Shown here: positions 40 to 39,037 of the stretch, in pieces | How the letters are laid out: each line of letters begins with the position of its first letter | Numbering within the stretch: position 1 is the stretch's first letter | IMG/VR virus record: IMGVR_UViG_2778261428_000004 | Location: 1 to 39,037 of that record | Length of the DNA: 39,037 nt | Reading direction: 5' to 3' (one strand) | Source: a virus | Taxonomy: Duplodnaviria; Heunggongvirae; Uroviricota; Caudoviricetes | Translations under genes and position numbers: made by a program | Notes under the pieces: model-generated | The model's input: the letters and a program-made list of their open reading frames with translations, nothing else | Database searches by the model: none | Told to the model about the DNA's origin: nothing

Positions 40-1059
40 TTGTTGGCGGCTTTTACTAAAATAACGACTGTAGTTAATGAGATTAACCATTTTTGCCCAT
101 TAGATGTGTCAGTTGTTATCCCTGTTCATAATCGTGAAAAACTTATTCTTAAATGCATTAACTCACTTAATAACCAAACAATTAATAAGGATCGCTTTGA
201 GGTTATTTTTGTCGATGATTGTTCAAGTGACAAAAGCATTGCTGCTATAGAATATAATATAGCACCGGATATTAACTACAGAATTATTCGCCGAGAAATT
301 GGTTCAGGTAACGCTTCAACCCCGCGAAATGAGGGGATAAAAGCAGCAAAAGGGCGTTATATTTTCTTCATGGATTCCGATGACTATATTGACGAAACTC
401 TTCTTGAGAGAGGGGTTCATATTGCTGATAAAAATAATAGTGATATTGTTTACTTCAAAATTGCATCAGATGGTAATCGCGAGGTGCCTATCCGTCCATA
501 CAAGGTGAAAATTGTAGATAAGGCAGATATAACCAAGCATCACCTCTTGCGGTCGTTAACTATTTTCAAATTCTTCCGAAGAAATATGCTTAAAGAGCAT
601 AACATTCTCTTCAACCCAGCTATCACCGTAGCTGAAGATAAAATATTTATGGTTCAATCTCTATCTGTAGCAAACAATATATCTATTCTTGCTGACAAAG
701 ATTATTATCATTTAACATTCCATGGTAATGGTCATTTATCAAGGCAAAAATTTCCTCTTGAAGATAGACACTTCATTCTTAACTCGGTTATTAACACGAT
801 TTACTTTTGCGGAAAAACTAACGAAGAAAAGGCCAAGCTTTACAATGCGTGGCTGGTGATATGCCTTGAAATGATGGAAAAGGTATGTGGTAAAGCAGGT
901 GGCAACGAGCAAAAGAAAAGGATGTTCTTTAACATGCTCTCAACCACTTTCAACATCCGCTCAGATTTAGTAAATCAGGATATGATTTATACCCCTCAGC
1001 GTAAGTTCATCAAACCTTTTTTACAAAATAATTATGAAGGTTTTATAGCTGAAATTTAA
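40..1059 (+). CDS. Family 2 glycosyltransferase (GT-A fold); start uncertain (TTG at 40/43 or GTG at 106)
   Basis: N-terminal VSVVIPVHN...FEVIFVDDCSSD and downstream MDSDDY motifs are typical of GT2 enzymes. The gene is markedly AT-rich. Its stop lies 46 bp from the tailspike stop. Confidence 0.7.
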   Translation: MLAAFTKITTVVNEINHFCPLDVSVVIPVHNREKLILKCINSLNNQTINKDRFEVIFVDDCSSDKSIAAIEYNIAPDINYRIIRREIGSGNASTPRNEGIKAAKGRYIFFMDSDDYIDETLLERGVHIADKNNSDIVYFKIASDGNREVPIRPYKVKIVDKADITKHHLLRSLTIFKFFRRNMLKEHNILFNPAITVAEDKIFMVQSLSVANNISILADKDYYHLTFHGNGHLSRQKFPLEDRHFILNSVINTIYFCGKTNEEKAKLYNAWLVICLEMMEKVCGKAGGNEQKKRMFFNMLSTTFNIRSDLVNQDMIYTPQRKFIKPFLQNNYEGFIAEI

Positions 1060-3751: not shown

Positions 3752-3872
3752 TTCATTGCTCCAGACGAATGATATGATGCAACCATGATGTGATTGCATA
3801 CCGAAATGGTACTATTGAGTATTTATCCAGTAGGTTACGATGCCATTCCACCCAACTGGTGAGGCATCAAGG
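3752..3872. promoter_or_regulatory. Divergent intergenic region between tailspike and mnt starts; candidate Pmnt / remnant Pant-operator region
   Basis: 121-bp gap between divergent start codons. By analogy with P22 immI this would hold the mnt promoter and Mnt operator, but I could not identify the operator with certainty. Confidence 0.3.
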
Positions 3873-4139
3873 ATGTACAGCAAATACGATGAGGCGCAGT
3901 TTCACTTGAGACTTCCGCATGAACTCCACGCGAAAATTAAGCAGCGTGCGAAGATGAATAACAGATCGCTGAACTCAGAGATAATTGCAGCGATTGAAGA
4001 ATCGTTGGCTAAACAAAGCTCTGCATCCGTTTACATTGATGATGCAGAGCGTATGGCAGAACAACAATCTGATATGGTTAAGAAAATGGTATTTGAAACG
4101 CTTAAGACCATGTATAGCAATAATAAAAAGGAAACATAG
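3873..4139 (+). CDS. mnt: Mnt-family ribbon-helix-helix repressor (P22 immI Mnt homolog)
   Basis: Sequence RLPHELHAKIKQRAKMNNRSLNSEII...DDAERMAEQQSDMVKKMVFETLK aligns with P22 Mnt as recalled. Start taken at internal ATG 3873 with AAGG upstream. Confidence 0.8.
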   Translation: MYSKYDEAQFHLRLPHELHAKIKQRAKMNNRSLNSEIIAAIEESLAKQSSASVYIDDAERMAEQQSDMVKKMVFETLKTMYSNNKKET

Positions 4140-4209
4140 AAATCTAGTTTCCGGCTAAAATGGCATTGCCTTCATGCTATCCTGTGAAAAACTAAGGAGA
4201 GTTAACCAT

Positions 4210-4695
4210 ATGAAAAAATCACTGTTAATTATCCCGCTTCTGCTGGTTGGATGCGCAAAAGTAAGTGACTATCAAGCAAGTTGCGAACAACGCTATCCAA
4301 AGCTTAGCGATATGGCTAATTGTCTTGATGCCAGTGTGAAGAACGACTCACGCATGGCATCAGCACCAACACCTAAGCTGTATGTCCTTGCTGCAAAGAT
4401 GCTCGGGCAAGGTGTCGATGAAGGCAAGATAAGTGACGCACAGGCAAGACTTGAGCTTCAGAATCTTTATGTTCAATTACAAAGCCAAGAACAAGCCCAA
4501 CAAATAGCACAAAGCCAAGCATTCCAGCAGGCTTTATTGAATTATCAGGCTGTAAACACAATGCAAGCGATCGAGCAAAAAGCGCGCCAGCCTGTTATAA
4601 CTCAACCTTACCCAACACGCGTTGACACATATACAAACTGCAATTCAGGATTTGGAAACACGGTAACATGCAACAGTAGCAGTAACATCAGATAA
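4210..4695 (+). CDS. Putative lipoprotein of unknown function (signal peptide plus lipobox LVGC), Gln-rich
   Basis: Start at ATG 4210 with AAGGAG 6 nt upstream. MKKSLLIIPLLLVGCAK is a classic SPII signal/lipobox. It occupies the sieA/immI position between gp16 and the tailspike. Confidence 0.65.
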   Translation: MKKSLLIIPLLLVGCAKVSDYQASCEQRYPKLSDMANCLDASVKNDSRMASAPTPKLYVLAAKMLGQGVDEGKISDAQARLELQNLYVQLQSQEQAQQIAQSQAFQQALLNYQAVNTMQAIEQKARQPVITQPYPTRVDTYTNCNSGFGNTVTCNSSSNIR

Positions 4696-28352: not shown

Positions 28353-28553
28353 CTATTTGTTTTTCTTGTTGCTTGGGAAAGGACGAACTTCCTCTCCAAT
28401 CACACTGCCATCAGGCTTTACCGTAACCATAATGTTACGGCCTGCCAGAATGGCCTTGCTGATAGCGCACTGGATTACACCAAAGTCACTGGCTGCTTTA
28501 GCCTGTCCATGGATTTTGGCGTAATCGGCAAGTGTCATTCGAATCATATGCAC
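28353..28553 (-). CDS. cro: Cro repressor
   Basis: 66 aa; ...[20 protein letters not shown]...[15 protein letters not shown] parallels lambda Cro. Confidence 0.9.
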
Positions 28554-28653
28554 TCTCCGTTATTAACCATGAACAAAGAATACTACAGGTATTCAAAGCA
28601 ATCAATACTCAGGGTATTTTTAGTTTAAGTACCTTAGCTATTAGAATTAAGCT
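28554..28653. promoter_or_regulatory. Right operator/promoter region OR with pR (minus strand) and pRM (plus strand)
   Basis: Two palindromic operators, GAATACTACAGGTATTC (28578-28594) and AATACTCAGGGTATT (28604-28619). pR is -35 TTGATT / -10 TATTCT on the minus strand, with SD GGAGAG before cro. Confidence 0.6.
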
Positions 28654-29370
28654 ATGGAAAATAAAAAATCACTGACGACAGAACAGCTGGAAGACGCTAA
28701 GCGGCTTAAGGCTTTGTATGAGTCAAAAAAGAAAGAATTGGGAATAACCCAATACTCAATCGCTGATGAACTGGGTATCACCCAAGGAGCGGTAGGGCAT
28801 TATCTTAATGGCAGAAATGCGCTAAACGTTGAGGTTGCATCTGGTTTTGCACGATTGTTGCAAGTCTCAATTGCTGATTTTAGCCAGTCAATTGCTGCCA
28901 AGGTTGCAGAACAGGCAGAAAGCCTTAAGAGCGATGCCAACGTAAGGTATGCAGGGGAATACAGAGCAGGAAAGAGGTATCCGGTGTTAAGCAGTATCCA
29001 GGCTGGCTCGTGGTGTGAAGCATGCGAACCATACACCATTAAAGACATAGATGTTTGGCTTGAGTCTGACGCGCATATTCAAGGTAATGCGTTCTGGCTT
29101 AAAGTGGAAGGTGATTCAATGACGGCACCGGTTGGGTTAAGCATTCCAGAGGGAACATTCGTTCTTTTCGATACCGGAAGGGAGGCGATCAACGGCAGCT
29201 TGGTCATAGCAAAACTTTCTGACTCTAACGAAGCAACATTCAAGAAGCTGATAATCGACGGCGGAAATAAATACCTCAAGGGACTTAATCCTGCATGGCC
29301 TCTCGTGCCAATCAATGGAAACTGCAAGATTATAGGCGTTGCAATTGAGACAAAACTCAGACTGGTTTGA
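28654..29370 (+). CDS. cI: CI prophage repressor (HTH N-terminal domain, S24 LexA-like autocleavage C-terminal domain)
   Basis: N-terminus parallels lambda CI (LTTEQLEDAKRLKALYESKKKELGITQ). C-terminal domain carries AG cleavage-site context and FWLKVEGDSMTAP...FKKL. Divergent from cro. Confidence 0.9.
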   Translation: MENKKSLTTEQLEDAKRLKALYESKKKELGITQYSIADELGITQGAVGHYLNGRNALNVEVASGFARLLQVSIADFSQSIAAKVAEQAESLKSDANVRYAGEYRAGKRYPVLSSIQAGSWCEACEPYTIKDIDVWLESDAHIQGNAFWLKVEGDSMTAPVGLSIPEGTFVLFDTGREAINGSLVIAKLSDSNEATFKKLIIDGGNKYLKGLNPAWPLVPINGNCKIIGVAIETKLRLV

Positions 29371-29388
29371 TCACGCAAGGGGGCGCTT

Positions 29389-29757
29389 ATGGTTGGAACC
29401 GCTATAGCAAGCTTTTTTGGGATGTTGGCAATCTCGACAATTTACGGCTTAGCGCATGCTTTTATTGCGAAATCTCTATCAGAAAAAATAAGCCAGGCTT
29501 GGGCGCATAGATCAGCTCGTTTCATGATTCTGGTGATCATAGCAATACAAGGGATATCTGCATTTATCCTCTATGGATCAAGCTTATACCTATTGTATCA
29601 AGGCGCGACATTTACGCCTTACACCAGTGATTACGGAACTCTATACGATGGTAGTGAAGACATCACTGTGGCTTGGATCGTCTTTGGTTTATCTATGGCC
29701 GTGTCTGTTGTAGCAGACATCATTAAGGTAATTCTCGTCTTAACCTTCGCTGACTAA
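29389..29757 (+). CDS. Small integral membrane protein (about 3 TM helices) co-oriented with and 18 bp downstream of cI
   Basis: AAGGGGG SD before ATG 29389; three hydrophobic segments. Occupies the lambda rexA/rexB position between cI and OL/pL; no sequence recognised. Confidence 0.6.
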   Translation: MVGTAIASFFGMLAISTIYGLAHAFIAKSLSEKISQAWAHRSARFMILVIIAIQGISAFILYGSSLYLLYQGATFTPYTSDYGTLYDGSEDITVAWIVFGLSMAVSVVADIIKVILVLTFAD

Positions 29758-29886
29758 CCTATAATCCCGGCAGCAATAGCTATCGGGATCCACTTCACAT
29801 ATCCCGCATAAAAAGCACTGAACAAGCAGACACCGAAAAAATAAATATCCTTTGTATTCATTTGCTTATCATTATTTCATCAAAAA

Positions 29887-29935
29887 TAAATACCTTGGGT
29901 ATTTACACAATAAAATACCTACAGTATTCTTTAGC
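29887..29935 (+). promoter_or_regulatory. Left operator/promoter region OL/pL
   Basis: Operators AAATACCTTGGGTATTT and AATACCTACAGTATTC share half-sites with OR; -35 TTTACA and -10 TATTCT are embedded. Confidence 0.6.
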
Positions 29936-30017: not shown

Positions 30018-30124
30018 ACCAAAGAGTAGTTGGCTTTGGGGTGACGTGAAGTGCAGCTGCACGACGGCAACCGGAAGATAAGCACCCGGCGCGTCACCGC
30101 CAAAGTCAATCATCGGAGGTCAAC

Positions 30125-30430
30125 ATGACAGTAGTCATTACATATCTGGCTGACGATAACGCCAGAAATCGCCGCAGAGCACGCAGACAGGCTCAACGTG
30201 AACAGGCAATGCAAGAACAGCGACTGGCGCGAAAGATTGCGCTAAAGCTCTCTGGTTGCGTCAGAGCAGACAAAGCAGCATCACTCGGAAGCCTTCGCTG
30301 CAAGAAGGCAGAAGAAGTCGAGCGTAAACAGAACCGTATTTACTACCGCAAGCCACGCAGTGAAATGGGTGTTACTTGTGTTGGTCGCCAGAAAATGAAA
30401 TTAGGCAGCAAACCACTGTATGAGGGGTGA
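30125..30430 (+). CDS. N: Antitermination protein N-like (arginine-rich motif)
   Basis: N-terminal ARM DDNARNRRRARRQAQREQ; position between pL/nutL and the early-left genes. Confidence 0.8.
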   Translation: MTVVITYLADDNARNRRRARRQAQREQAMQEQRLARKIALKLSGCVRADKAASLGSLRCKKAEEVERKQNRIYYRKPRSEMGVTCVGRQKMKLGSKPLYEG

Positions 30431-30433
30431 TCT

Positions 30434-30685
30434 ATGGAATTTCATGAAAGTGCGATTTATGATTTCCGCGCTAACGCAAATTCAGTAAAACCACAGCCAA
30501 TTGCAGTTCTTTTTAAAACAATGGGAGCGTGGGCTGTTTTATGCTTCGCCGCTGATGACACTGACGCAAGAATGGCAATAGGCCAAGAGATGGAGATGGA
30601 CCCGACAAACGATGAATTCATAATTTATGGCGCTCCATCTAATTACTTACTTGATACCTGCAACATTTACAACAAGGCTGCCTGA
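30434..30685 (+). CDS. Hypothetical early-left protein (83 aa)
   Basis: ATG with GAGGGG SD; directly follows N. Confidence 0.5.
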   Translation: MEFHESAIYDFRANANSVKPQPIAVLFKTMGAWAVLCFAADDTDARMAIGQEMEMDPTNDEFIIYGAPSNYLLDTCNIYNKAA

Positions 30686-30724
30686 TGGTGGCCTTTATTT
30701 TTGGCACTAACAACAGAGGCTAAC

Positions 30725-37767: not shown

Positions 37768-37986
37768 ATGTACTTAACACTTCAGGAGTGGAACGCACGC
37801 CAGCGGCGCCCAAGAAGCCTTGAAACAGTTCGTCGATGGGTACGCGAGTGCAGGATATTCCCTCCTCCGGTTAAGGATGGAAGAGAGTATCTGTTCCACG
37901 AATCAGCGGTAAAGGTTGACTTAAATCGACCAGTAACAGGTAGCCTTTTGAAGAGGATCAGAAATGGGAAGAAGGCGAAGTCATGA
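37768..37986 (+). CDS. xis: Excisionase
   Basis: 72 aa, MYLTLQEWNARQRRPRSLETVRRWVRECRIFPPPVKDGREYLF..., essentially lambda Xis as recalled. Confidence 0.95.
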   Translation: MYLTLQEWNARQRRPRSLETVRRWVRECRIFPPPVKDGREYLFHESAVKVDLNRPVTGSLLKRIRNGKKAKS

Positions 37987-39037
37987 GCGCCGGGATTTAC
38001 CTCCTAACCTTTATATAAGAAACAATGGATATTACTGCTACAGGGACCCAAGGACGGGTAAAGAGTTTGGATTAGGCCGAGACAGGAGGATAGCAATCAC
38101 TGAAGCTATACAGGCCAACATTGAGTTACTCTCAGACAGCGGACGCAAATCACTGATAGACAGAATTAAAGGCGGTGACGCAATCACTCTTCATGTGTGG
38201 CTTGACCGATATGAAAGAATCCTCACCGAAAGGGGGATCAGGCCGAAAACTCTACTCGACTACGCCAGCAAAATCAGGGCAATCCGAAGAAAATTGCCGG
38301 ACAAACCGCTCACTGACATATCAACGAAAGAAGTGGCAGCAATGCTAAACACCTACGTAGCAGAAGGTAAAGCAGCTTCCGCAAAATTAATCAGGTCAAC
38401 CCTTGTTGACGTTTTTCGTGAAGCAATAGCCGAGGGGCATGTGGCAACGAATCCGGTAACAGCAACCCGTACAGCAAAGTCAGAAGTAAGGCGCTCAAGG
38501 CTGACAGCTAATGAGTATGTCGAGATTTACCATGCAGCCGAACCTCTCCCTATCTGGCTAAGGCTGGCGATGGATTTGGCCGTCGTTACAGGGCAGAGAG
38601 TCGGCGATTTGTGCAGAATGAAATGGTCAGACATAAACGACAACCATCTTCACATTGAACAGAGTAAAACAGGGGCTAAACTCGCCATTCCGCTAATGCT
38701 AACGATTGACGCGCTCAATATCTCATTGGCTGATACACTACAGAAATGCAGGGATGCCAGCAGCAGTGAAACTATAATCGCATCAAAGCATCACGATCCG
38801 CTTTCCCCGAAAACAGTATCAAAGTATTTTACAAAGGCGAGAAATGCATCTGGACTCTCATTTGATGGAAACCCGCCAACATTCCATGAACTGCGTAGCC
38901 TGTCAGCGAGGCTATACCGGAACCAGATTGGCGATAAGTTTGCTCAACGTCTTCTCGGGCATAAATCAGATTCAATGGCGGCGCGGTATAGGGACAGCCG
39001 TGGACGGGAATGGGACAAAATTGAAATCGACAAATGA
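37964..39037 (+). CDS. int: Tyrosine integrase, lambda Int-like
   Basis: 357 aa; MGRRRSHERRDLPPNLYIRNNGYYCYRDPRTGKEFGLGRDRRIAITEAIQAN... and C-terminal ...HELRSLSARLY...LLGHKSD...EWDKIEI match lambda Int as recalled; overlaps the xis end. Confidence 0.95.
   Translation: MGRRRSHERRDLPPNLYIRNNGYYCYRDPRTGKEFGLGRDRRIAITEAIQANIELLSDSGRKSLIDRIKGGDAITLHVWLDRYERILTERGIRPKTLLDYASKIRAIRRKLPDKPLTDISTKEVAAMLNTYVAEGKAASAKLIRSTLVDVFREAIAEGHVATNPVTATRTAKSEVRRSRLTANEYVEIYHAAEPLPIWLRLAMDLAVVTGQRVGDLCRMKWSDINDNHLHIEQSKTGAKLAIPLMLTIDALNISLADTLQKCRDASSSETIIASKHHDPLSPKTVSKYFTKARNASGLSFDGNPPTFHELRSLSARLYRNQIGDKFAQRLLGHKSDSMAARYRDSRGREWDKIEIDK

Follow-up and report, generated by a model that had tools for sequence, protein, structure and literature searches.

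Lambdoid prophages carry, between cI and N, a slot that has been proven to supply systems protecting the lysogen, namely Rex, BstA, Stk and Hex. The rexAB genes of lambda, bstA, stk of 933W and hex of 434 all lie in this slot and share a transcript with the repressor gene (PMC8585504, PMC7067206, PMC3564112); co-transcription was shown by reverse transcription-PCR for hex (PMC3564112) and by transcriptomics for bstA (PMC7067206, PMC8585504). The present analysis concerns hkaS, the gene found in the same place in a 39,037-nucleotide stretch of viral DNA (IMG/VR record IMGVR_UViG_2778261428_000004), which is called the window here and comprises the complete genome of a P22-like temperate phage. 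hkaS belongs to a known but uncharacterised open reading frame (ORF) family in a known hotspot. A preliminary description of this DNA had reasoned from the slot, and the precedents listed above agree with that logic. Judging from its position and the type of protein, the best reading is that HkaS would be a lysogen-expressed accessory protein of the inner membrane, transcribed with cI.

The closest described systems resemble hkaS in different respects. The lambda rexA and rexB genes likewise lie after cI and before the left operators and promoter (OL/pL) on the cI strand, and RexB is also a multi-pass inner-membrane protein (PMC8585504). However, lambda has two genes here, while the hkaS locus has one, without a RexA-like sensor gene in the operon. 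HkaS has 122 amino acids and three predicted transmembrane (TM) segments, as compared with 144 amino acids in RexB, to which four TM segments are usually attributed. P22 SieA is a small, stand-alone prophage protein of the inner membrane with three predicted TM segments, as HkaS is predicted to be, and SieA is alone sufficient to block DNA injection (PMC10883804). If HkaS works as a single protein, SieA is its best functional analogue. The sieA gene, however, has a promoter of its own and belongs to the immI region, whereas hkaS has a position in the cI operon; SieA goes with P22-like virion modules, and hkaS goes with cI over P22-like, lambda-like and Stx-phage backbones. The 434 hex gene, which is on the pRM transcript, directly follows a homologous cI (52% identity), as hkaS follows its own cI, and both P22 exclusion and a stabilisation of the lysogen were reported for Hex (PMC3564112). 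On the other hand, Hex is unrelated to HkaS: its N-terminus resembles a signal peptide, and it lacks a TM bundle. BstA of BTP1 and Stk of 933W are also encoded downstream of the prophage repressor, as lysogen-expressed anti-phage proteins sharing the repressor promoter, but the published descriptions set them apart from HkaS by their intracellular action, BstA at phage DNA replication sites and Stk as a tyrosine kinase (PMC8585504, PMC3564112).

The hkaS gene and its linkage to cI

The preliminary description had reported an 'unrecognised' ORF of 122 amino acids, 18 nucleotides (nt) past the cI stop and preceded by a strong Shine-Dalgarno (SD) sequence. The ORF, its SD sequence (AAGGGGG) and the gap, which follows from the position of the cI TGA stop, were confirmed (Table 1). 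The word 'unrecognised' has to be withdrawn, as the ORF is already hkaS of HK620 and PHROG 6534. The translated ORF matched phrog_6534 with an E value of 2.4e-79, residues 1-122 on profile positions 1-122, and was 99.2% identical to HK620 HkaS (AF335538, AAK28867), the product of which was listed as 'unknown' in 2001. Every other source names it 'hypothetical protein'. The two are the same gene, in the same position between cI and OL and with the same flanking operators, and no substantive difference was found between them.

Homologues at 83%, 61%, 55% and 52% identity were all exactly 122 residues long, with 43 invariant positions. The ratio of nonsynonymous to synonymous substitutions (dN/dS) of hkaS was 0.13-0.2, which indicates purifying selection. 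Between the window and the 83%-identity lineage, dS was 0.69 for hkaS and 0.73 for cI, and because these values are equal, the two genes have co-diverged. The dN/dS values for this pair were 0.13 for hkaS and 0.03 for cI, and dN was 0.093 and 0.024, respectively, so that the HkaS protein evolves about 4 times faster than cI. An intact hkaS was present in all 80 IMG/VR prophage loci, which encoded 24 protein alleles with conservative substitutions (T93S/V94M being a common dimorphism). The GC content of hkaS was 42.3%, as compared with 45.3% in cI and 47.5% over the whole window. The conservation strongly supports that hkaS is a genuine conserved coding gene and not a chance ORF.

A non-functional hkaS, a chance or decaying ORF hitchhiking with cI, is accordingly extremely improbable. 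Some database variants of HkaS (P0006, P0007 and P0009) do have a frameshifted N-terminus, as a decaying ORF might, but this explanation is effectively refuted by the conservation: the dN/dS range, the length and the invariant positions still present at 52% identity, the intact copies in IMG/VR, the conserved SD sequence and a fold predicted with high confidence. The N-termini of the three variants derive from an overlapping +1-frame ORF at 29367-29510 (+) of the window, with a TTG start at 29367 (MITQGGAYGWNRYSKLF...). They are frameshifted or mis-called alleles, and are rare, with 1-2 members each.

hkaS was found in 16 phage records and fills the slot in 146 of 5,426 complete E. coli genomes (~2.7%), yet it has been 'hypothetical' for 25 years. 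The exact HkaS sequence occurred in at least 1000 contigs, Salmonella among them, and relatives were found in Enterobacter and Hafnia. The source names of the family (Escherichia, Salmonella, Enterobacter and Hafnia) confine it to prophages of Enterobacterales, and its divergence follows the host genus. A scan of one genome per species gave no hkaS copy.

To describe the linkage with cI, 88 loci were checked, 9 from divergent lineages and 79 from IMG/VR with upstream sequence. In 88 of 88 (9/9 and 79/79, respectively), hkaS lay 17-20 nt after an HK620-type cI. The SD sequence was kept at the cI-hkaS junction in every lineage (8 junctions compared), as AAGGA in the divergent ones. The conserved block is cII-cro-cI-hkaS-OL/pL; the right-hand mosaic junctions fell at 30019-30700 (nutL-to-N), 260-940 base pairs (bp) from hkaS, and none was found between cI, hkaS and OL. 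The module is carried by P22-like podoviruses (HK620, HZ41 and HF4s), by lambda-like siphoviruses (HK630, HK140 and mEpX2) and by Stx-type phages (phi296, phi367 and Stx2c phages). Phages whose cI is only 51-71% identical were without hkaS. Beside related cI genes, the slot was empty in Serratia OS31 and mEp213, encoded a 200-amino-acid soluble protein in Erwinia phage 49 and held Hex in 434 and Huey. The slot is variable between cI families, and hkaS is fixed within the HK620-type cI family.

Two minor observations concern the Hex occupants of this slot. The 434 'repressor protection protein' Hex, as annotated (sequence L012, 2409-2813), begins with a signal-peptide-like stretch, MIRIAALLSILLTTSANSEC, which is odd for a proposed cytoplasmic blocker of RecA-stimulated repressor cleavage. 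The Huey gene of the same size and position (sequence L099, 2109-2513) is auto-annotated as PagP-like.

Expression and predicted structure of HkaS

The gene order of the window corresponds to that of lambda, N-pL/OL-[rex]-cI-OR-cro, seen on the opposite strand. Therefore, the earlier account of the hkaS position, co-oriented with cI in the rex slot and ahead of OL/pL, was correct: the operators and pL, including a candidate third OL site, occupy 29844-29930, and N lies downstream. By a consensus scan, neither a promoter-like nor a terminator-like site was detected in the gap from the cI stop to the hkaS start. There is strong support for an arrangement in which hkaS could be translated from the cI message, which would start from pRM in the lysogen and from pRE during establishment; the co-transcription is inferred.

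In four lineages (the window, L003, L007 and L009), a stable hairpin starts 7-27 nt downstream of the hkaS stop, with z-scores from -1.95 to -3.5. Its sequence differs from that of the window in L003 and L007 and is clearly related in L009, and no U tract follows in any of them. This stem-loop is probably the 3' end or terminator (the tIMM equivalent) of the cI-hkaS transcript, and the authors of HK620 also placed the immunity terminator after hkaS. The HK620 record gives OL3 at the equivalent of 29866-29882 and 'tIMM' over 29839-29869; from the sequence, this annotation of the third OL operator and of the terminator may be mis-assigned.

No conserved ORF other than hkaS was found between cI and OL. 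A hydrophobic antisense ORF of 35 amino acids (MNTKDIYFFGVCLFSAFYAGYVKWIPIAIAAGIIG, 29754-29861 (-)) lies between hkaS and OL; HK620 has an intact copy that differs by 3 amino acids. This ORF was rejected as a partner or toxin gene: in the Salmonella, Hafnia-type and L007 lineages it is cut short by a stop about 10 codons from its start, and it is therefore probably not a gene.

The three TM segments claimed for the protein were found again as three Kyte-Doolittle hydrophobic segments and as three helices of an AlphaFold2 model (Table 1). The first loop of HkaS is basic (K28, K33, H40, R41 and R44) and the second is acidic (D81, D87, E90 and D91). On the basis of these loop charges and the positive-inside rule, an inner-membrane topology with the N-terminus outside and the C-terminus inside is predicted with strong support. 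The AlphaFold2 model, built on a 7-sequence alignment, had a predicted local distance difference test score (pLDDT) of 92.1 and a predicted template modelling score (pTM) of 0.79. It consisted of long helices at residues 2-29, 41-73 and 89-121; the cytoplasmic loop (~17 residues) contained a short amphipathic helix and the periplasmic loop (~22 residues) a small beta-hairpin. The best-conserved parts of HkaS were LS-KIsQaW-H-ARF in the cytoplasmic loop, YLLYqgaTF-pY at the periplasmic end of TM2 and D110-x-x-K113-x-ILVLTFAD at the C-terminus. Conservation was lowest in the periplasmic loop, 52% as compared with 71% in the cytoplasmic loop, and the distal part of the periplasmic loop was the most variable. 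Four polar residues inside the membrane helices, Q54, S106, D110 and K113, were invariant.

The HkaS family is tiny. A word-indexed search of 5.8 billion proteins gave 12 HkaS clusters, and an exhaustive HMMER profile search of 1.84 billion representatives gave 2 matches, and so there are no remote relatives to lend a function. Pfam gave only sub-threshold matches of TM composition (Cation_ATPase_C, 17.6 bits against a cutoff of 27.3), searches of NCBIfam and PDB sequences gave no match, and the PADLOC-DB v2 models gave 0 families at E <= 10. Fold searches with the model returned generic helical bundles and no relationship to any solved structure. Among characterised membrane proteins, no match was obtained by the profile and fold searches, which returned only PHROG 6534 and the generic bundles. 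In profile comparisons by hhalign, the probability was 0.7% against lambda RexB, 0.3% against P22 SieA (one of three SieA sequence types), 0.1% against P22 SieB (SieB/Esc) and 0.1% against 434 Hex. Because all of these were below 1%, HkaS belongs to none of the RexB, SieA, SieB and Hex families as judged by sequence profiles, and the statement that it resembles neither RexB nor SieB holds.

Possible roles of HkaS

The cI message, started from pRM (and from pRE at establishment), would carry hkaS and end at the hairpin after the hkaS stop, and HkaS made continuously in the lysogen would protect it against superinfecting phages. Because of this continuous production, lysogen protection is the most probable role of HkaS. 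The mode would be superinfection exclusion by interference with DNA entry, rather than an abortive system of the RexA/RexB type with a sensor and a channel. The block of entry is favoured because HkaS is a membrane protein of small size that stands alone: it lacks a soluble sensor domain, and no partner gene accompanies it. Interference with DNA entry at the inner membrane is how P22 SieA, HK97 gp15 and T4 Imm act. In such a mechanism, the cytoplasmic loop, the C-terminal ILVLTFAD and residues Q54, D110 and K113 may mark where HkaS touches a conserved partner (host or self), and the fast-evolving periplasmic hairpin may face the incoming phage machinery. The faster protein evolution of HkaS relative to cI and the low conservation of its periplasmic loop fit this reading. 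We therefore propose, tentatively and by analogy, that HkaS excludes superinfecting phages by an entry block at the inner membrane.

Several points weigh against this proposal. Selection on HkaS is purifying overall and not diversifying. No known exclusion or defence protein is homologous to it, and its fold matches are generic. Termination at the hairpin after hkaS is unproven, because of the missing U tract, and in the literature on hkaS, HK620 and mEpX2 we found no functional study and no experimental or transcriptomic datum for hkaS. Unlike typical shuffled defence morons, hkaS is tied to a single type of cI, beside which it was found in all of the 88 loci, and this strict linkage is explained at least equally well by a functional coupling to cI. 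As for the preliminary description, its anatomy of the locus and its positional rationale stood, and the protective function that it put forward was drawn from position only.

A strict and ancient linkage to cI is not predicted by a defence-moron model, and therefore a Hex-like or protease-modulating role is kept alive. HkaS would then be a lysogeny-stability or switch factor for this cI, acting on the fate of cI or CII, e.g., by titrating or recruiting FtsH/HflKC or by damping RecA-dependent cleavage in the manner of 434 Hex. We consider this rather unlikely, although hkaS occurs only beside HK620-type cI, has the same dS and was not parted from it despite mosaic junctions close by, and conservation within HkaS is highest on the cytoplasmic side. 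Moreover, 434 has the closest characterised cI, and its hex stabilises the lysogen recA-dependently (PMC3564112). However, HkaS and Hex have no similarity, a 17-residue cytoplasmic loop offers little surface for acting on a DNA-bound repressor, relatives with 51-71% identical cI do without hkaS, and the linkage is simply explicable by the 18-nt spacing and a young, narrow family. With a still lower probability, HkaS may be coupled to its repressor in another sense, either as a minimal membrane part of the HK620-type switch that links the envelope or membrane state to cI/CII stability, or as a cI-dependent, sensor-less exclusion device; such a coupling would explain why hkaS was never parted from one cI lineage while the surrounding modules shuffle.

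The invariant polar residues embedded in the membrane hint at a pore. HkaS could form an oligomeric gated pore in the role of RexB without RexA, which superinfection would open, so that the membrane potential collapses and the cell dies before progeny is made. This abortive infection is quite unlikely, as the trigger would have to come from the short loops, with no sensor domain and no partner gene; in addition, there is no RexB homology and no PADLOC match, and HkaS has three predicted helices, not the four usually attributed to RexB. It is no more probable that HkaS is a membrane protein of lysogenic conversion with a benefit to the host unrelated to phages (envelope stress, acid or antimicrobial tolerance, or colonisation), for which lambda bor and lom are the model. 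The expected expression in the lysogen and the wide occurrence in gut Enterobacterales, with divergence following the host genus, are in line with such a benefit, but no homology to known fitness factors was found in Pfam, NCBIfam or PDB sequences, and the characterised occupants of the slot are mostly anti-phage (PMC8585504, PMC3564112).

As a short single gene in model phages for which laboratory E. coli is a host, hkaS is a good and inexpensive experimental candidate. If HkaS is anti-phage, it would be a new family among the few single-protein membrane factors of exclusion or abortive infection. If an induction phenotype is found instead, it would represent a membrane input to the classical genetic switch.

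Features of the immunity region and of the window

The features of the region are listed in Table 1. Over the hkaS region, the nearest relatives of the window are HZ41, HF4s and HK620 (98.6-99% identity), and its cI is 99.6-100% identical to the cI of HK620, mEpX2 and HZ41. The pR and pRM promoters are placed between the divergent cro and cI genes (28579..28642). From the sequence, the true start of cro is likely the HK620-like ATG at 28547. To the right of hkaS, OL2, OL1 and pL together span 29889..29930, and the candidate third OL site is 45 bp from OL2 and is kept in divergent lineages.

Table 1. Coordinates of the features around hkaS in the window. TM boundaries are approximate and come from the Kyte-Doolittle segments.
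Feature	Residues	Position	Strand	Basis
cro		28353..28553	-	Pfam Cro, E 3.6e-26; HK620 annotation
OR operators, AATAC-N5-GTATT x3		28579-28593, 28604-28618, 28628-28642		Pattern search; OR1-3 and pR annotated in HK620
cI repressor, 238 amino acids, HTH_3 + Peptidase_S24		28654..29370	+	Pfam; TGA stop 29368-29370
hkaS SD sequence AAGGGGG, 5 nt before ATG		29377..29383	+	Sequence
hkaS, 122 codons, predicted three-helix inner-membrane protein	1-122	29389..29757	+	ORF, PHROG, hydropathy, AlphaFold2
TM1	3-27	29395-29469	+	
Basic cytoplasmic loop	28-44	29470-29520	+	
TM2	45-70	29521-29598	+	
Acidic periplasmic loop with beta-hairpin	71-92	29599-29664	+	
TM3 with invariant D110/K113	93-120	29665-29748	+	
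Stem-loop just 3' of the hkaS stop		29764..29789	+	RNA fold, -15.3 kcal/mol
Operator-like site AATATCCTTTGTATT, candidate third OL site		29844..29858		1 mismatch to AATAC-N5-GTATT
OL2		29889-29903		Pattern search; HK620 annotation
OL1		29914-29928		Pattern search; HK620 annotation
pL-like promoter, -35 TTTACA, 17-nt spacer, -10 TATTCT		-35 at 29902; -10 ending 29930	+	Consensus scan
N antiterminator, first gene of the pL operon, right edge of the slot		30125..30430	+	PHROG 271, E 4.9e-38

Two operator-like sites with 2 mismatches each were also seen within hkaS, at 29544-29558 and 29585-29599. They are probably due to chance, because the excess of such sites over the whole window (27 as compared with 15.8 expected) comes from the real operators.

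At its ends, the window carries a gene for a GtrB-like glycosyltransferase (40-1059 (+)), for which O-antigen conversion is possible, and an integrase gene (37964-39037 (+)). These end genes are consistent with an entire genome of a phage or prophage that is opened close to att. A Mnt/Arc-like repressor gene at 3840-4139 (+) is followed by an ORF of 173 amino acids at 4174-4695 (+), which has 161 amino acids when counted from an internal Met, carries the lipoprotein signal MKKSLLIIPLLLVGC and belongs to PHROG 6067 (unknown). Both are oriented opposite to the late genes and lie between the tailspike and ejection-protein genes. The counterpart place in P22, the tailspike-to-ejection region, houses sieA and mnt. 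No similarity was detected between the lipoprotein ORF and P22 SieA; the ORF is a candidate for a second lysogen-expressed exclusion gene in the window.
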